From Nitrospirota bacterium (GTDB lineage Bacteria; Nitrospirota; UBA9217): a stretch of DNA of 64,000 bases. Made by a program: the position numbers and the translations under genes. Numbering within the stretch: position 1 is the first letter of the stretch; each line of letters starts with the position of its first letter. The notes below the pieces were generated by a model. It saw nothing but the letters and a program-made list of their open reading frames with translations, searched no databases and had not been told where the DNA came from. Location of the stretch: assembly GCA_963790205.1 (NCBI GenBank), contig CAWBNQ010000003.1, positions 224,001 to 288,000 on the forward strand, in the 5' to 3' direction. This document shows, piece by piece, positions 48,396-63,773 of the stretch.

Positions 48396-50755
48396 ATGAA
48401 AAGGAGTATGCTCGGGCTTGCGGCGTTTCTGCTGCTCGCGGCGCTCGCGGGCTGCGCGGGTTCCCAGGCGTTCCAGCGCGGCGAGCGTTATGCCGATCGG
48501 GGAGAATGGGACCTTGCCGTGAAGGAATACCGGGAAGCCAACACGCGCTCGCCCCAGGACATCGAATACCGTTCGGCGCTGCTCAGGGCACAGGAGACCG
48601 CGGCGAACGAGCACTATAAAAGGGCGCGCAAGTTTCTGAAGGAGCGGAAGTTCGACCAGTCCATCGAGGAGCTTCAGCAGGCCCTGTATCTCAACCCTTC
48701 GAATGCGGCCATCCAGAGCACGCTCAAGTCCGTGCTCGATATAAAGCAGGCGGAGGAGCACTACCGCGCATCGCTCACGTTCCAGGAGCTCGGACGGTTG
48801 AGCGACGCCATCAGCGAGCTGAACCAGGCGGTGGAGCTTGATCCGGAAAACGTCAAATACCTCGATTCCCTCGACAAGCTGCGGAAAAAGAAGGCCGAAA
48901 CCGAGCCGGAAGACGCGCTCACCCTGGCCTCGGACAAGCCCATTACCCTGAATTTCAAGAACACGAACATCAAAGACGTCTTCGATTTCCTGTCCAAGCT
49001 CTCGGGCATCAACATCCTGTTCGACGAAGAAGTGAAGGCGCAGCCGGTGACCGTGTTCGTCAAGGACGTGTCGTTCCAGTACGCGCTCAACCTGCTCCTC
49101 TCCACGAACAAGCTCTTCATGAAGAAGGTCAGCGCCGACACCATCATCATCGTCCCCAAGACCAAGGGAAAGCTGGACCAGTACCAGGACCTGATGGTCA
49201 AGACCTTCTATATCAACAACGCGAAGGCGAAAGAGGTCGTCAACCTGGTCCGGTCCATGCTCGATGTCAAAAAGATATACGTGAACGAGATCCAGAACTC
49301 CATCACTGTGCGCGATACGCCTGAGAAAATAAAACTGGTGGAGAAAGTGATCGCCGCGAACGACCTCAAGGAAGCGGAGGTCATTCTCGACGTCGAGATC
49401 CTCGAGCTGGCAAGGACCAACTCGCTGAATGTCGGCTGGAACTTTACGCCCGGGCTGACCGCCGGAGCAACGGTCCAGAGCATTACTCCCCCGACCGGCG
49501 TTTCTATCCCCGCGGGCAGTATCTCCCTGAACGAGCTCAGAAACCTGTCGAGGGACAATATTTTTGTAACCCTCCCCGGTATTGTGATGAACCTGATCAA
49601 ACAGGATTCCGATGCCCAGACCCTTGCCAACCCGCGGGTCCGCGTTCTGAACAACAAACAGGCGAAGTTCCATATCGGAGACAAAATTCCGATCCAGACC
49701 TCGACCATCCAGTCCACCGCGACGGCCGCCGTCACGTCCACCTTCGAGTATAAGGACGTCGGCATCAAGCTCAACATCGAACCGACCATCCACCTCAACA
49801 ACACGGTGACGCTCAAGATGGCGATGGAAGTCAGCACCCTCGGCCAGCCGCTGGATTTCGGGAACGGGCAGAAACAGTACAAGTTCGGGACCCGGAACAC
49901 GGAGACGATCGTAAACCTGCGGGACGGAGAGACCGTGATCATCGGGGGACTGATCAAGGATGAGGACACGGAAGAGCAAGATCAAGGTTCCCGATCCTCG
50001 GCGATATACCTCTAGTGGGCAGGCTGTTCTCCTCGACGGACGACGAAACGATCAAGACGGACATCCTCATGTCGATCACGCCGAACATCGTGCGCAATAT
50101 GGAGCTGCCGGACAAGGACACGCAGGCGTTCTGGTCGGGGACGGAAGAGGCCTACGCCACCACGCCGCTCTTCGTCACCGCCGGCAAGAGCACCAAGCCG
50201 TCGAGCAGGGCGCCTGACAAGACCGAGGTGCTCGAATCCATGGCGAAGTCCGGGGCGGCTGCTCCGGCGGCCGGGTTAGCGGCGAAGACGCTGTCGGCCC
50301 CGACGACCACGGCGACAGGACAGCCTTCCGGCGCGCCATCCGTCGCGGCTTTGGAGCTCGAACCTTCGGAAGGAACGGTCCAGGTCGGACAGGAAATGAG
50401 GGTGGAACTGACCGCCGGCGGGATCAAGGACCTCTACGGGGGCATTATTACGCTGAGCTACGATCCCAAGGTATTGGATTTCAAGACCGCGAGCGAGGGA
50501 ACGTTCCTGAGGAAGGACGGACAACCGACCTCGTTCCTTTTTTCGAACAACATCAATGCAGGGACCGTGGACATTTACATAACGCGCATCGGCGGGCGAG
50601 GCGGCGTAGGCGGCTCAGGAAGCCTGTGTACCCTCGTATTCCAGGGCAAATCGGGCGGAACAAGCGAGATAACCATGAAGAGCGTGAAACTGATGAATAT
50701 GGCACGGGAACAGATCGGGAGCGAAAGCAAAAAGGCGAAAGTGGTTGTGAAGTAG
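48396..50755 (+). CDS. gspD: Secretin (GspD/PulQ-like) with N-terminal lipoprotein-TPR and C-terminal cohesin domain; split by two +1 frameshifts
   Basis: LAGC lipobox, ITLNFK, LANPRVRV, YKDVGIKLNIEP, GETVIIGGLI. Removing one base at ~49968 and one at ~49991 restores KVPILGDIPLVGRLFS. Cohesin-like LSYDPKVL...EGTFL...GSGSL. Confidence 0.88.
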
Positions 50756-57162: not shown

Positions 57163-57488
57163 TAATTTATATACAGTATAATGTTAAGGCTTCTTTCTGA
57201 ACGCTTTATTCAGAAAGAAGCTGGTTGGGCTAAGCCGTTGCGCGCCACGTCGCTATGGGATTTCAAATGATTTGTCAGCTTAAAACGAAGTCCGCGGAGA
57301 CAGCATTGGCAGGGGCGTGAGACTTGTTCGGGTGAAAAGCGGCGATTCCGGACTGCTCCGCAAGCCCCTTTCGTAAAAGACTATACAGGAAAAAGGGCTT
57401 TTGGGCAATAGGGTATCGTTGCGAAAGACGTGACTTTTTTCGGGGATGGATGTCGGAGTCGGGTTGTTCATTTCAGTGCTTGTGGTAA

Positions 57489-58682
57489 TCATATTCGCGG
57501 CGGTCCTTTGCAGCGCGCGGGCTGCATGATCTCGATTGTGCGCATTCTGCGTTCGCCGCAGGCAGGGCATTTGGCCACGTCAATGCCGGCGATCCTGAGC
57601 AAAGCTTCCTGCCACGTCTCAGTCTTCTGCTCCGCCTCGTTCTGATCAACGCAGGCCAGAAGCTCTCTGCATTGGTCGAGTTTCTTTCTGCGGCATCTGT
57701 TTCCCAACAGACCGTAATGCCTGATTTTGACAAACCGGTCGGGCAGGACATGAAGCAGGAACCGCCGGATGAACTCATCGGCGTCCACGGTCATGATCTT
57801 GCTTTTGTTGCTGTCCGCGTAGTCGCGCCACCGGAAGGAGATCTTGTCGTCCATCATCTTCACGAGCCGGTGATTGCTGATCGCGATACGGTGGGTGTAT
57901 CTGCCGAGATACTCAAGAACGCCTTTTGTTCCGTCGAACGGCGGCTTACAATAGACGACCCACTGCTTCTTGTACAAATCGGCGATGAAGGCCTTGAAAA
58001 CTCCCGGCGACGCAAGATGGCTTACGACGCCGGGGTAGACAAGTTTGTTCTCGGCACGGAGTTTTTTCAGATAAGCGAGAAACTTCCCCCGAAAGAGTTT
58101 CGACATGACCTTGACGGGAAGGAAAAAGCCATTCTTGCATGATTTCCATTTCCGTCCGCCCTTGGACAATCCGCCGCCGGTGACGATGTTGTGGAGATGC
58201 GGATGATCCATAAGGTTCTGTCCCCAGGTGTGCAGGATCGAGATAAAACCGATTTCCGCGCCCAAGTGTTTCTGCGTATTCGAGAGTTCCGTCAGGGTTT
58301 CCGAAACGGCCTTGAACAGGATCCCGTAGAGGGCCTCCTGGTTCCGGAGCACAAGGGGATTGAGTTTATCGGGGATGGTAAAAACGACATGGAAGTAAGG
58401 AATGGGAAGCAGGTCTTCTTCCCGGGCCTCGATCCACTGCTCTTTTTTAAGGAACTGGCACTTGGGGCAATGCCGGTTTCTGCAGGAGTTGTACGAGATC
58501 ACTTTTGTCCCGCAGTGCTCGCATTCGTCCACGTGACCGCCTTGGTCGGCGGTGCGGCAGGTCTCGATCGCCCGCATGGCGCGAAGACGATTCAAGGGCA
58601 TGGGATGAGCGTTCCGGTAAAGAGGACCGTACCGGCGAAAGATGTCCGCGACTTCGATCTGTAGGCTATCTCGCGTGTACAC
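57489..58682 (-). CDS. IS91-family (Y2 HUH) transposase with Zn-binding domain
   Basis: CRT..GGH...CEHC...YNSCRNRHCPKC, YFHVVFT, HTWG...HPHLH (HUH), YLGRY, RHYGLL. Confidence 0.95.
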   Translation of the reverse strand: MYTRDSLQIEVADIFRRYGPLYRNAHPMPLNRLRAMRAIETCRTADQGGHVDECEHCGTKVISYNSCRNRHCPKCQFLKKEQWIEAREEDLLPIPYFHVVFTIPDKLNPLVLRNQEALYGILFKAVSETLTELSNTQKHLGAEIGFISILHTWGQNLMDHPHLHNIVTGGGLSKGGRKWKSCKNGFFLPVKVMSKLFRGKFLAYLKKLRAENKLVYPGVVSHLASPGVFKAFIADLYKKQWVVYCKPPFDGTKGVLEYLGRYTHRIAISNHRLVKMMDDKISFRWRDYADSNKSKIMTVDADEFIRRFLLHVLPDRFVKIRHYGLLGNRCRRKKLDQCRELLACVDQNEAEQKTETWQEALLRIAGIDVAKCPACGERRMRTIEIMQPARCKGPPRI

Positions 58683-58703
58683 CGCGGGTGTCGCGTGTGC
58701 AGG

Positions 58704-59561
58704 CTACGAGGTTTGTGGAGGATTTAAGAAGGGGCCTAAGTCCAGAGGGCTCACGATCTTTGAGAGGTTCTTTTTGCTCACGTGGAGATAAATAGTGGTC
58801 GTTCTCACCGACGCATGGCCGAGCAGAAGCTGAATATAGTGCAGATCAGCTCCCGACTCCAGCAGGTGTGTGGCGAAGCTATGCCGAAGCGTGTGACAAC
58901 TTGCCGGCTTCGTGATGCCGGCTTTTTTCTTCGCGCGTTTGAACGCCTCTTGGACGGTGCTAATGGAAATGTAGTTTTCAGGCTTTTCTCCCGGAAAGAG
59001 CCAATGCGTCGGTCTATATTCTTTCCAGTATTCCCGAAGCGCTTCCAGCGCTACCTGGGATAAAAGGGTATACCGGTCTTTTTTGCCTTTGCCCTGGTCC
59101 ACGCGTATCAGCATACGGCTGCTGTCGATGTCCGTGATCTTGAGCCGGGCGGTCTCGCTCGCCCGGAGCCCTGCCGAGTAGGTCACCATCAGCATCACGC
59201 GCTGCTTCAGGCTGGGAGTGGCTTCGAACATGGCCTGTACCTCCTCCCGTTCGAGAACGATAGGAAGTGTCTTGGTCGTCTTCGGATAGGGAATCTTGTC
59301 CATCACCCAACCTTTGCCCAGCGTCGTTTCATAGAGGAACCGCAGCGCGCTGTAAGTTATCTTCAGGGTGGATAGCGATACCTTCTTATCCCGGACGAGG
59401 TAAAGCAGATACGCTTTGACATCGCCGTCTTCCAAAAGGTCGGGCGGTTTTTTAAAATGGCGTTCCATATCGCGCGCCGCCCGGTGATACAATGATTGCG
59501 TCTTCGGGGCTAATCCTCGAAGCACCATGTCGCCCTGCATCTGTTCTTTGAACGTTTCCAT
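58704..59561 (-). CDS. Tyrosine recombinase (N-terminal SAM-like domain)
   Basis: YSAGLRASE (R), GKGKKDR (K), HTLRHSFATHLLE, LLGH...TTIY. Confidence 0.95.
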   Translation of the reverse strand: METFKEQMQGDMVLRGLAPKTQSLYHRAARDMERHFKKPPDLLEDGDVKAYLLYLVRDKKVSLSTLKITYSALRFLYETTLGKGWVMDKIPYPKTTKTLPIVLEREEVQAMFEATPSLKQRVMLMVTYSAGLRASETARLKITDIDSSRMLIRVDQGKGKKDRYTLLSQVALEALREYWKEYRPTHWLFPGEKPENYISISTVQEAFKRAKKKAGITKPASCHTLRHSFATHLLESGADLHYIQLLLGHASVRTTTIYLHVSKKNLSKIVSPLDLGPFLNPPQTS

Positions 59562-59975
59562 TGCATAATCTCCTTCCGTTGAATCGAAATTCCAACGGCA
59601 TGACGCCGATGGTGATGCGAAAGAAGATTGTAGAACGGTCAGGATTATGAAGCAAGGAGCGAGACGAAGAAAATCTATCGAGATATGCGGGGATGAATTG
59701 TAGAGAGACTTATTGGAATGCGAATAACACCGCCGCGCAGCGGCTTAGTTCAACCGGCATTTGGAGCTTTTCCAGGGGATATCAAAATCTGTAAAGTTTC
59801 GGGAAAAAGCCAATGTGGAGCAAGATAGACAGATTAAGCTGTCAAATTATTCAAGTGGTTAATGCGCCGAACGCGTCAATAAGGAGCTTAATCATCTGTT
59901 TTTAAAGGTTTTAATTTTATTGACAACAGTTAGCTATTAGATTAACTTGTACCAGTCTTTTAAAGGAGAATACTA

Positions 59976-62900
59976 ATGTCGTACTTAAAAAAATTGAAGT
60001 ATACCGTGTTGTTATCAGCACTTATGATGACCGGACTTATGTCTTTTGTTGTCACCTCGGCTGTCGCGGACCCTCTGGCTGACGCGCTCGACAATCCCGT
60101 TCAGACGGACGGCGTGACGCCTCTGGCGTTTACCCCGGCCGGGGCCGCGCCCTGGTCCGCGGTGACTGCGACGCTGTACAACGGCGGTTCCGGCACTGTT
60201 GCCCAGAGCGGCGCCATCGGCGGAGGGGCGTATTCCTCGATCACGACGACCGTGACCGGGCCGGCCTCCCTCTCGTTCTATCAGAAGGTGTCCTCGCAGC
60301 TCACCTATGACAAATTGACCTTCTCCCTCGACGGCTCGGTAAAGAGCACGATCAGCGGCTCGGTCAACTGGCAGCAGAAGCTCTTTACGCTTCCGACCGG
60401 GACCCATACGCTCGTCTGGAAATACGCCAAGAATCTCACGATAAACGGAGGCAGCGACGCTGCCTGGCTCGACAAGGTCGTGGTGAGCCCGAATACGGCG
60501 CTCAAGGTCACGTACCCCAACGGAGGGGAGAACCTGATAGCCGGCGCCCCGGTAAACATCACGTGGAACGCCCCCGCTGCCGCCGAGAAATACGATCTGT
60601 ACTTCACGACGAACAACGGCACGACCTGGACGTCCATTGCAAGCAATTATACCGGCCCGGGTTTTATGGGCATCACGTATCCCTGGACCTGGCCGGTGCC
60701 GAAGAGCAACATGACCGCCTGCAAGGTAAAAGTTGTCGCGAAAAATAACGCAGGCGTCGTCGTGGGAACCGATATGTCGGACAAGGTCTTTGCCGTCAAC
60801 AACGTCCGGCTGACCTCCCCGAACGGCAGCAATGTCCTCGCGGCAGGCGGCTCGTTTGACATCACCTGGGACTCGACCGCCACGGCGACAAGCTTCAATC
60901 TTTACTACACCCTGAACAACGGAACAACGTGGACCTCTCTTGCGACGAATGCGACCGGCACCGACCATATGTGGTCGCCGCTGCCCGTGCCTCCCGCGGG
61001 CAATATGACCGCGTGCAAGGTGAAGATCGTCGCCTACAATGGTTCCAGCATGATCGGCACGGACATCTCCGATGCGCCCTTTACCATGCAAGTGCTCAAG
61101 GTGACCGCGCCGAACGGCGGAGAGCTCATGAGCGCCAAGACCGGCACGTACACGATCGGGTTTCTCGTTTCCGGTTTGACCAACACTTCCGCGAGCGCGA
61201 CCGTCTCGTACACCATCAACGGCGGCTCTTCCTGGCCCGTGATCGGCATAATCTCGGGCGGCAGCGCCATTACCCCCGGAACGTACACGTGGGATTGGCA
61301 AGTGCCTGCCGTATCCGCTGTCAAGAACGCCAAGGTAAAGGTCGTGATCAAGAGCAAATCCGGCGTTGTGCTCGCCACGGACACGAGCGACGCCAATTTC
61401 ACGATCCTTCCCGTTTTCACCATCTCCGGCACGGTGAGCGGAGCAACCGTCACCAGCGTCACCATGACGCTGGGCGGAGACGACAGCAACACAACCACGA
61501 CCGACTCCCTTGGGAAATACTCCTTTAAGACGCTTCTCAAAGGGAACTACACAATATCTGCCGCCAAGGCCGGCTATTACTTCAATCCCGCGAGCACGGC
61601 CCTGGCCGTCACGACGGCGAACATCACGACCGCGAACTTCAAAGCCACGGTGTCCTTGAACCCCACCTACACCCTTTCCGGCACGGTGAGCGGAGCAACC
61701 GTTACCGGCGTGACCGTGACCCTGGCCGGCACGGTGAGCGGCAGCGTCCAGACCGCCGTGGACGGAACATACTCCTTCACAAACCTGCCTGCGGGCAATT
61801 ACAACGTGACGCCGGGCAAGACGGGGTACACGTTCGGCCCCCTGAGCAGAGGAGTTATTCTGAGCGCCGCCGATGCCCCCGGAGTCGATTTCGCGGCATT
61901 GCCGAGCGCCGGCGCCACTTACAGCATCTCGGGCAAGGCGACCTATAACGGGGCCGGCATCTCCGGCGCAACGATCACGATGATCGGTGATGCCAACGCC
62001 ACGGTCCTTACCGACGCGGGCGGAAATTATATTGTCAAGGGGCTCAAGAACGGCTCCTACACCCTCACGCCGAGCAGCGCACTGGCATACGATTTTTCGC
62101 CGGCAAGCGTTACGAAGAAAGTAAGCGGCGGGAGCCTCACGGGCGTCAATTTTACCGGCCTGGGCCCGGTCCTGGGAGTCTTGATCACGTCTCCAAAGGC
62201 GCCGCCCCTTGCGTCATTCACGCAGAACATACCCTCCAACGACCATACCGGCCCATATGATGAAATATTCCCGGGCATGGCGAACCTCTGGTCCCTTGAC
62301 ATGGATTTCAGCCTCGTGAACGGTTTTGATAACCAGTTTTATTATGCCGAGGAACTGGGCGTCGGGGGAATTTTCACCAGTGTCGCGTCCGGGATTTCAA
62401 ACTTCGATACCAGCGGCGCTGGAGACAGCGGCGGGGGAAACCTTTTCCCCATAGACCAGATGTTCGGCGATCCTACAAATAATTTTAACTGTTATGACCC
62501 GTCTGACTGTTCTCCTCCCACGTTCTATACGCCGGTCATGGGGGCAGCGGACGGCGTTAAGATTGCGACGGTATCGGACGGCGCATCAATGGCAGGGTCG
62601 CTTCCCACCGGGCTTTTGTCGACGTCGGTGACGGGAACGTATGCGGCGTTCCTTAATGCAACGACCGACTCGCGCTTGCAGACTACGCTGGACCTGACCT
62701 CGCTTCCGACAGGGTCGGCAATCAATATCTCCTGGGGTAATTCCGTATTTTTGCAGATGGACCTGCTGCAGCCCCTGCCCCCGTCCTACACCCCGAGCTA
62801 CCAGGTTGTTTTGCGGAACATGGACGGGAGCTTGCTGAAGACCTTGTATAACAACCCGCCTGTAGGCTTGCATGATAATAAGGGGCCAATAACTGTTTAT

Positions 62901-63773
62901 GATTCCCCAACGTATCCGTTAGCGGGGAAAAAGGTCATCCTTTCTTTTGAGATGAACAGTTCGAACTTCCCCTATGGCCAGACCGTCGGCACAAACCCTT
63001 TCCCCAGCCAGGCGTACGCGATCATCGATAACGTATCCGTCCTTAAGTACGGCACTACTTATGAGTATGTGACCAACGGCGATTTCGAGACCGGAGACCT
63101 GACCGGATGGACCACGAACACGCCGGCGGAGGTGCAGAACATCACCTCGGGCGCGAGGTCCATTCCCGTAGGAACGGGAACGGATAAGCTTACGGTCAAG
63201 CGGTCCTTCTATACCGTGCCGAACAAGCTCTGGGGCAGGTGGGTGGACGTGATCTCGAACCCTACCGGCCACTCAATCACCACGACCGTTTCCTATGAAT
63301 CCGACCTGGAATCCTCCGGCGCGGGAGTCATCTACGACCCCGTGTCCTACAGCACCAGCACAACGCCGGCGCCCCATGCCCTCACCTCATGGGATTCCTC
63401 CTATTTCCTGTGCGGCGGTGTCCCGGGTTGTGACGGGACCCGCGATGTCGGCCTGGTATTCGGGAACGCAGCCACCGTGGATTTTTCATCGGAAACGGCT
63501 AATGGAATGTATAATGATATCGCTGACGGCAGCGAATACATCGATGTCACCTACAACATTACCGTGCCGGCGTACGGCAGGGTCGCGATCGTCAACTTCG
63601 TTCTTATGGACGGCACGGACACGGGCGTGGCCGCAACGGACACAACATTTCTGGCGTCGCAAATCGATGACGAGGCAAAGAACATCTTGAACAACTTTTG
63701 GACCGATCCCCAGTACCGGGACGGGATGACGACGCAGCAGATCAATGCGATTTGGAATTTCCCCCGGCCATAG
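59976..63773 (+). CDS. Large secreted Ser/Thr-rich surface protein (Ig-like and carboxypeptidase-regulatory-like repeats)
   Basis: SD AAAGGAG; signal peptide; three xPNGGE-type Ig repeats; three (I/L)SG(T/K)...GxYxF repeats; VTNGDFETGDLTGW; unassigned C-terminal domain. Confidence 0.88.
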   Translation: MSYLKKLKYTVLLSALMMTGLMSFVVTSAVADPLADALDNPVQTDGVTPLAFTPAGAAPWSAVTATLYNGGSGTVAQSGAIGGGAYSSITTTVTGPASLSFYQKVSSQLTYDKLTFSLDGSVKSTISGSVNWQQKLFTLPTGTHTLVWKYAKNLTINGGSDAAWLDKVVVSPNTALKVTYPNGGENLIAGAPVNITWNAPAAAEKYDLYFTTNNGTTWTSIASNYTGPGFMGITYPWTWPVPKSNMTACKVKVVAKNNAGVVVGTDMSDKVFAVNNVRLTSPNGSNVLAAGGSFDITWDSTATATSFNLYYTLNNGTTWTSLATNATGTDHMWSPLPVPPAGNMTACKVKIVAYNGSSMIGTDISDAPFTMQVLKVTAPNGGELMSAKTGTYTIGFLVSGLTNTSASATVSYTINGGSSWPVIGIISGGSAITPGTYTWDWQVPAVSAVKNAKVKVVIKSKSGVVLATDTSDANFTILPVFTISGTVSGATVTSVTMTLGGDDSNTTTTDSLGKYSFKTLLKGNYTISAAKAGYYFNPASTALAVTTANITTANFKATVSLNPTYTLSGTVSGATVTGVTVTLAGTVSGSVQTAVDGTYSFTNLPAGNYNVTPGKTGYTFGPLSRGVILSAADAPGVDFAALPSAGATYSISGKATYNGAGISGATITMIGDANATVLTDAGGNYIVKGLKNGSYTLTPSSALAYDFSPASVTKKVSGGSLTGVNFTGLGPVLGVLITSPKAPPLASFTQNIPSNDHTGPYDEIFPGMANLWSLDMDFSLVNGFDNQFYYAEELGVGGIFTSVASGISNFDTSGAGDSGGGNLFPIDQMFGDPTNNFNCYDPSDCSPPTFYTPVMGAADGVKIATVSDGASMAGSLPTGLLSTSVTGTYAAFLNATTDSRLQTTLDLTSLPTGSAINISWGNSVFLQMDLLQPLPPSYTPSYQVVLRNMDGSLLKTLYNNPPVGLHDNKGPITVYDSPTYPLAGKKVILSFEMNSSNFPYGQTVGTNPFPSQAYAIIDNVSVLKYGTTYEYVTNGDFETGDLTGWTTNTPAEVQNITSGARSIPVGTGTDKLTVKRSFYTVPNKLWGRWVDVISNPTGHSITTTVSYESDLESSGAGVIYDPVSYSTSTTPAPHALTSWDSSYFLCGGVPGCDGTRDVGLVFGNAATVDFSSETANGMYNDIADGSEYIDVTYNITVPAYGRVAIVNFVLMDGTDTGVAATDTTFLASQIDDEAKNILNNFWTDPQYRDGMTTQQINAIWNFPRP

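Follow-up and report, generated by a model that had tools for sequence, protein, structure and literature searches.

Introduction

In transposition of IS91, which depends on a Y2 HUH transposase, it is the bottom strand that is circularised and inserted (PMC13181058). The bottom strand is also the one that the integron integrase IntI recombines in attC sites (10.1101/2022.09.11.507474). A folded attC presents two to three extrahelical bases, one of which is contacted by the I2 helix of IntI (PMC11641012). The two systems meet in a group of elements that pair an IS91-like transposase gene with a tyrosine recombinase gene and are already catalogued (PMC9208149; 10.1101/542381). One of them has been recorded beside an attC (PMC9229058), and arrays of another, ISWz1, are reported to form circles (PMC11322121). 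The gene pair is widespread, and in the literature that could be searched we found no description of its mechanism, a folded junction, strand bias, attI targeting, core covariation or a division of labour between the enzymes; subscription reviews and the ISfinder/TnCentral pages, which lay outside the search, may describe the ends. Here we analyse an element of this kind in a 64,000-nucleotide stretch of a Nitrospirota bacterium genome (contig CAWBNQ010000003.1, positions 224,001 to 288,000; hereafter the window). An earlier note on this DNA had proposed that the ends of the element would fold into an attC-like hairpin and that it moves as a self-mobilising cassette. On balance, we consider it probable that the HUH enzyme copies the element out and that its own recombinase integrates it.

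Results

An exactly bounded element in seven copies

The element and its parts, in window coordinates, are as follows.

57182..59753, minus strand: whole element, 2572 bp, one of seven copies, delimited by copy comparison and exact boundaries.
59734..59753, minus strand: left end, the outer-helix arm that starts with TT, upstream of the recombinase; likely the ter end, by IS91 geometry (PMC13181058).
58704..59561, minus strand: tyrosine recombinase of 285 aa with a SAM_4 N-terminal domain; profile matches to PF13495 and PF00589.
57489..58682, minus strand: IS91-type Y2 HUH transposase of 397 aa; profile matches to PF14319 and PF04986.
57224..57244, minus strand: subterminal box, which forms the outer helix together with the left end and has AAC as its last bases; its variant at 57229 is shared with one other copy.
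57189..57221, no strand assigned: inner helix, a 13-bp perfect stem with a 7-nt loop; it covaries in homologues, and its terminal part varies in length.
57182..57188, minus strand: 6-nt unpaired strand and the terminal A at the crossover, opposite the 2-nt strand 57222-57223; likely the ori end.
57176..57181, minus strand: host sequence that makes up the downstream half of the target, beyond the crossover (TT followed by a purine).
59754..59762, minus strand: host sequence that makes up the upstream half of the target, before the crossover, with G at -1 and AA at -9/-8 (AA in all seven genomic copies).

The seven copies in the genome are 99.9-100% identical and 0-1 base apart. Four are identical, the window copy and one other share a single substitution at 57229, and one carries a 1-base insertion that shifts the transposase frame. 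At every left junction the element begins with TT directly after a host purine (G in six copies, A in one), and at every right junction its terminal A is followed by host TT (A|TT). Reading these two TTs as a 2-bp target duplication was rejected on the evidence of the copy at C3:721569, which splits a long host gene. Joining its flanks with a single TT yields an open reading frame of 270 plus at least 1000 codons, whereas joins placed 1 or 2 bases off leave only 32-93 codons on the shorter side; TT is therefore a shared core. Of 38 sites examined in this way four were informative, the other three belonging to more distant lineages and being less clear. Since the reading frame returns only with the exact join, the ends of the element are exact and without target duplication, as in IS91 and as the earlier note had claimed. 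An empty allele of the window site was not found: no relative with both flanks was present among 60 genomes, and no bridging contig in the reads of four runs. Recent expansions occur in other genomes as well, with four copies at 99.96-100% identity in G343 and four at 98-100% in G027 (handles denote our genomes, contigs and loci). The element is intact and recently spreading, and by its sequence it appears autonomous in its movement. The suggestion that ATT in place of GTT at 57182 had immobilised the window copy did not survive this comparison: all seven near-identical copies have A|TT, and the terminal base forms a G.T wobble with the box on the bottom strand.

The two enzymes

Profile searches bore out the two enzymes first proposed for the locus. 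The transposase scored 471 bits against the IS91 profile NF033538 (cut-off 125), and its Zn domain, H160-x-H162 motif and both tyrosines, Y258 and Y262, are invariant across 19 homologues. In the recombinase the R133, K158, H223, R226, H249 and Y258 set is intact, as in integron integrases; among its homologues the five catalytic residues are invariant in 45 of 45 and the tyrosine is present in 44 of 45. The recombinase gene lies upstream of the transposase gene in 187 of 190 transposase hits with room for it, a redundant set drawn from one transposase clade.

The best solved-structure match of the recombinase is IntI4 (PDB 2A3V, E 3e-40). Against the integron-integrase profile TIGR02249, however, it scores 204.6 bits, below the cut-off of 265, and its alignment has a 33-column gap where host IntIs carry the I2 region. 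Two trees, rooted with a small Xer-like outgroup, placed the element recombinases and the IntIs as sister groups (support 96, falling to 59 after distant rows were added), in agreement with the placement in the accessible part of 10.1101/542381. An alternative in which IntI is nested inside the element recombinases was not supported, the sister grouping itself being weak (59) with the distant rows. By these sequence comparisons the element recombinase is a sister of IntI but not an IntI, lacking the I2 insertion and scoring below the cut-off.

The joined ends are predicted to fold into an attC-like site on the bottom strand

The top inverted repeats of the region are a 13-bp perfect stem (57189-57201/57209-57221) and a long repeat (57220-57244/59734-59758). 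The latter corresponds to the 23-nt flanking repeats described earlier; the repeat is real, but its element-encoded part is 20-21 bp and the extra pairs in the window copy are host bases. It pairs the left terminus with the box, 42 nt inside the right end, and covaries in 49 clusters of homologous ends. The right-end stem (fold z -3.2/-4.9) is present in all seven genomic copies, and the possibility that the hairpin at 57189-57221 is host sequence was rejected for this reason. Joined in silico, the two ends give the long hairpin that had been predicted: an outer helix of 21 bp and an inner helix of 13-14 bp with an asymmetric loop between them, with a fold z of -7 to -9 and 0 of 300 shuffles as stable on either strand. 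The outer helix can also form in an integrated copy, using the host G at -1.

Homologues were taken from relatives, at least 78 genome loci and at least 80 metagenome loci. The resulting 174 element records, duplicates included, comprised 107 distinct sites with the end-to-end repeat and 90 with the inner stem, as recognised by a pattern seeded on close relatives; four visibly wrong end calls were removed, and 86 were clustered into 49 end types. Across these 49 clusters the two helices flank a loop of 2x6 or 2x7, and covariation in both exceeds that of partner shuffles by a wide margin. The ends are conserved together with the two enzymes, as the earlier note had required of them. The dinucleotide of the left end, which was unused in placing the stem, is seen again 7 or 8 bases past it (41 and 33 cases). 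The terminal part of the inner hairpin ranges from 11 to 91 nt.

The mismatches within the helices are strongly asymmetric. Top-strand A.C outnumbers top-strand G.T by 36:1 in the outer helix and by 41:10 in the inner helix, a total of 77:11 in favour of G.T wobbles on the bottom strand, whereas base composition predicts a ratio of only about 1.3:1. By cluster, 39 lean to top-strand A.C, three lean to G.T and seven tie, and the bottom strand is the more stable fold in 48 of 49. A double-stranded inverted repeat would show no such bias; it is therefore likely that the bottom strand folds on itself as single-stranded DNA.

Computationally, two helices, an unpaired spacer, a variable terminal structure and a bottom-strand bias reproduce the folding of attC. 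Extrahelical bases do not: there are none in the first 8 bp of the inner helix, which here is a perfect 13-bp stem, and inner positions 1-7 pair without gaps in 43-49 of the 49 clusters (stems were sought ungapped). The absence of the I2 helix fits the absence of extrahelical bases, because I2 contacts one of these bases in attC (PMC11641012). With a recombinase that lacks the I2 insertion and a site that lacks extrahelical bases, the joined site is best described as attC-like, not attC. What stands of the hairpin first proposed is its two-helix bottom-strand fold; the 2x6/2x7 loop, the missing extrahelical bases and the I2-less enzyme set it apart. The element had no match in Rfam.

The end-to-start junction exists as DNA

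Of the four read runs searched, run X1 yielded one contig that passes from 59751 back to 57180. The equivalent junction is found in two homologous loci, as a tandem in L090 and at a contig end in L054. Thus, the predicted end-to-start junction exists as DNA.

Target sites carry information on both sides of the crossover

In close relatives each of the 45 distinct left flanks has a purine at -1 (G in 35, A in 10). The right flanks (n=39) have T at +1 in 36, T at +2 in 38 and a purine at +3 in all 39. Because the right dinucleotide varies occasionally and the left never, the crossover is placed at R|TT and the target reads R|TTR. In terms of the integron core GTTRRRY this is the bond between bases 1 and 2, as had been anticipated, with A|TT on the side of the element. 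The classical IS91 tetranucleotide CTTG/GTTC is not used; the right flanks, TTR, read NYAA on the bottom strand.

Outside attI-like sites, A occupies position -9 in 19 of 30 flanks and -8 in 17 of 30 (p ~3e-5 against the genome background, values that local AT richness may inflate and that come from related elements and hence dependent samples). AA at -9/-8 is found in all seven copies of this genome (G000), the window copy included, in 5/5 in G023 and in 6/10 in G031, which are IntI-bearing hosts, and in 1/9 in G027. Such two-sided information would suit a two-armed recombinase site better than a one-sided IS91 tetranucleotide.

Two further observations concern target sites. In G027, a repeated sequence resembling the end of a transposase gene carries L025, L027 and L322 at an identical position in its copies, beside a short palindrome. 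In L055 and L232-L234 (G343), which are 99.96-100% identical, either junction shows TA or AA, a pattern that points to the first core base being inherited in a mixed fashion.

Integron attI sites are among the targets

Three copies in this genome share an attI-type flank. At the C6 copy a divergent intI lies beside the element and an attC-bearing cassette array follows it. The three attI-type platforms are 84-95% identical, compared with 99.9-100% for the elements that they carry. Separate insertions are favoured because the platforms diverge more than the elements; the last 69 platform bases are identical, so conversion may be responsible instead. An attI-like motif was present in 13 of the 45 distinct left flanks, four of which have a divergent intI or a remnant of it in the fetched flank. 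The copies at C6 and C3:525873 come in addition to these, and three more sites lie near or inside intI. An unoccupied attI paralogue beside the third intI of the genome ends at the same G|TT as the occupied sites in G023. The motif is weak by itself, with eight occurrences in the genome and an equal frequency in reverse controls. Insertions at attI occupy the first position, in cassette orientation, at the crossover bond of IntI.

Targeting of integron sites thus held for attI; attC targets are a minority in this lineage, outnumbered by attI and secondary sites. Support for attC as the main target was weak: four of 25 GTT-class sites passed a home-made scan (null 10/621), a further scan gave 3 of 54, only L050/L238 being convincing, and a stricter scan gave 0 of 25. 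On visual inspection alone, L066, L069 and L071 resemble insertions into attC. An attC-like site follows within 1.5 kb of 10 of 39 right ends, compared with 0 of 60 random windows. The window target itself was rejected as an attC (fold z +1.1/+0.3, attC scan negative); it is a secondary intergenic site, neither attC nor attI-like.

Several loci show elements or their remains entangled with integrons. In L286 (G174:C318) a close relative is inserted within the intI coding sequence. Right-end relics also exist, and one that was examined is a deletion product: at G000:C3:666990-667520 (L007) the last codons of intI adjoin the last 68 codons of a related transposase and its right end, followed by cassettes, and most of intI, attI and the left part of the element have likely been lost through deletion. 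Attention is also drawn to the relic right ends at G000:C1:331877-332351 and C5:215456-215810, where attI-type sequence follows within about 140 and 90 bases; insertion or deletion upstream of attI may allow the element to seed integrase-less arrays. The intI beside the C6 copy (G000:C6:108700-110381, L005) is broken by an insert of about 130 bp with stop codons. At the N-terminus, the host IntIs of this genome carry a long extension (463 aa at C5).

Spread without a detected IntI, and lineages with other cores

No IntI was found in G027, G168 or G343, where all candidates were scored. Yet G027 (99% complete) and G343 (100%) both show recent multi-copy spread. Gene cassettes are non-autonomous and need a host IntI; this element has its own recombinase and has spread where no IntI was found. 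Lineages with CGT, GAC, GAA and CCC cores share this architecture. In these the core covaries at the left junction, the box and the right junction, above shuffles, and GAC and CGT cores alternate between sister recombinases.

Other features of the window

On the plus strand the right junction of the window copy (57178-57183) reads TATAAT, where the empty site would read TATAAC. Many right flanks start with TTAT, so the element often lands in AT-rich DNA resembling a -10 box; promoter and terminator scans gave results at chance level. The insertion falls in the upstream region of a gene for a 1265-aa predicted secreted protein with repeated domains (59976-63773), whose start is about 220 bases from the left end of the element. 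An 18-nt inverted repeat (89%) between the right non-coding part of the element and host DNA beyond its left end (57266-57283/59834-59851) is probably due to chance. Further away, a secretin-like open reading frame of a type II secretion or pilus cluster (48396-50755) is seemingly split into two frames near 50015.

Discussion

The scheme that we prefer starts from what is seen directly: exact ends, junction DNA, a conserved fold, a target consensus and intact catalytic residues. From these we infer both chemistries and their order. By analogy with IS91, the HUH enzyme would nick the right end, copy out the bottom strand and stop at the left end, and the copied strand would close into a single-stranded circle. 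The joined ends would then fold into the two-helix recombination site, and the element's own recombinase, the sister of IntI, would exchange this single bottom strand with a double-stranded R|TT target, attI included; replication would resolve the product, as in integrons. Target choice may depend in part on base pairing between the incoming strand and the box of the element itself. Pairing with the box G would be compatible with either G or A at -1, and box pairing would also explain the different cores of other lineages. The full form of this proposal, that these are self-mobilising cassettes in which the HUH enzyme supplies a single-stranded circle, an I2-less sister of IntI integrates its folded junction, and the box sets the core triplet, we put forward tentatively, at somewhat less than even chances.

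A number of observations weigh against this proposal. The junction sightings fit a circle or a tandem alike, and single-stranded or double-stranded DNA alike; moreover, HUH cleavage at the same bond would leave identical junctions, so that the junction sequence cannot separate the two chemistries. The 2x6/2x7 loop is unlike the near-symmetric loops of the host attC sites, and I2, the helix with which IntI engages folded sites, is missing from the recombinase (PMC11641012). To these are added the AT richness and dependent sampling behind the -9/-8 signal. The HUH enzyme might carry out both steps, as in IS91, where TnpA inserts a bottom-strand circle without any recombinase (PMC13181058). The hairpin would then serve in ori/ter recognition, hold the two ends together and guide the target by pairing, and the recombinase would only resolve multimers or excise. 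NYAA of the right flank on the bottom strand does resemble TCAA of the left end, as the target next to ori resembles ter in IS91, and tandem copies that might need resolving do exist. HUH enzymes of the IS200/IS605 type, for their part, use guide pairing. We nevertheless find this unlikely: there is target information 8-9 bp away across the cut, attI is targeted at the crossover bond of IntI and in cassette orientation, the ori-adjacent motif is not CTTG/GTTC, and the recombinase is the closest kin of IntI and is almost never lost. The opposite assignment, in which the recombinase both excises and integrates the element from transiently folded single-stranded DNA, as with a cassette, while the HUH enzyme is a passenger or does no more than amplify the circle, seems very improbable to us. 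The outer helix that can form with the host -1 G would provide two partial sites per integrated copy, but the transposase keeps its HUH motif, both tyrosines and Zn domain, and no recombinase-only element with these ends was seen in searches that were seeded on the transposase and end motifs and not aimed at such elements.

The contribution of host integrases also has to be weighed, since elements of the GTT class might be cassette mimics moved mainly by host IntI, with their own recombinase as a backup in IntI-free hosts. Of 10 genomes with a GTT box, 9 have a host IntI, compared with 2 of 27 for other boxes, although these hosts are not independent and several had only 32 candidates scored. 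G|TT and AA at -9/-8 dominate in IntI-bearing hosts, whereas targets in G027 are mostly A|TT (6/9), with little -9/-8 signal (1/9). Both the box association and the G027 targets count against a purely autonomous reading. From the strength of the -9/-8 signal in IntI-bearing hosts and its weakness in G027, host IntI may do part of the work; in G027 the element variant and the host IntI are confounded. Furthermore, IntI inserts cassettes at many genomic GWT sites (10.1101/2022.09.11.507474), and the attC-like sites that follow right ends point the same way. On the other hand, the multi-copy spread in G027 and G343 took place where no IntI was found, G222 has an IntI and yet A|TT at both of its sites, the folded site is without extrahelical bases, which contribute to the definition of attC, and the architecture is kept with CGT, GAC, GAA and CCC cores. 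For these reasons we regard movement mainly by host IntI as quite improbable.

If the preferred scheme of HUH copy-out and integration by the element's own recombinase is true, rolling-circle transposition and integron-type recombination are joined in one 2.6-kb unit, and a recombinase without I2 acts on a folded site without extrahelical bases. The element would then open to experiment the question of how tyrosine recombinases gained the ability to act on folded single-stranded DNA. In the full form of the proposal, with the core triplet set by the box, these elements would be a living model of a pre-integron state in which single-strand recombination preceded I2 and extrahelical bases; GTT lineages would live as parasites of integron arrays and also seed them, and a change of box would switch the target core. 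For integrons, a copy that holds the first position at attI stands between the cassette array and its promoter region. An intact version with recent activity is available in this genome in seven copies, and its target rules are known. Beyond the earlier note, this analysis adds the wobble bias of the bottom strand, the sightings of junction DNA and the two-sided target information.

Among known systems, the element shares its gene pair with IS91-like elements that have an upstream tyrosine recombinase, a group to which ISShvi3, ISWz1 and ISSod25 presumably belong and with which it was compared by description. With integron cassettes and attC it has in common two helices with an unpaired spacer, a variable terminal structure, bottom-strand folding, the G|TT crossover, and first position at attI in cassette orientation. 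It differs in several ways: its loop is 2x6/2x7, its outer arm measures 20 bp, its own side of the crossover reads A|TT, the first 8 bp of the inner helix contain no extrahelical bases, it encodes its own enzymes, and other lineages have non-GTT cores. Its recombinase resembles IntI in the best structure match (IntI4, PDB 2A3V), the SAM_4 domain and the sister position in both trees, but falls below the TIGR02249 cut-off and has a gap at the I2 region. Phage CTX and other integrative mobile elements exploiting Xer (IMEXs) follow the logic of the preferred scheme in combining single-stranded DNA from HUH rolling-circle replication with a folded site integrated by a tyrosine recombinase. IMEXs of the CTX type borrow host XerC/D and use dif, whereas this element has its own recombinase and seven unrelated or attI targets in one genome. 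CTX is mentioned in PMC9345347 alongside the strand-biased circularising SE elements, which copy out one strand and integrate by tyrosine recombinases, again as in the preferred scheme; in the accessible part of that paper, SE elements lack attC-like inverted repeats at their att sites and no HUH transposase is described for them. Like the IS91 family (IS91, IS801, IS1294, IS1294b), the element has a Y2 HUH transposase, makes no target duplication and implicates the bottom strand. Unlike that family, its transposase is only about 27% identical to the classical ones, a recombinase takes the place of orf121, a 20-bp inverted repeat joins ends that in IS91 have none (PMC13181058), and the target is R|TTR with distal information instead of CTTG/GTTC. 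Judged by these comparisons, the element departs from the IS91 family in two defining properties and from gene cassettes in two; it would work like a self-mobile cassette and is a canonical member of neither.

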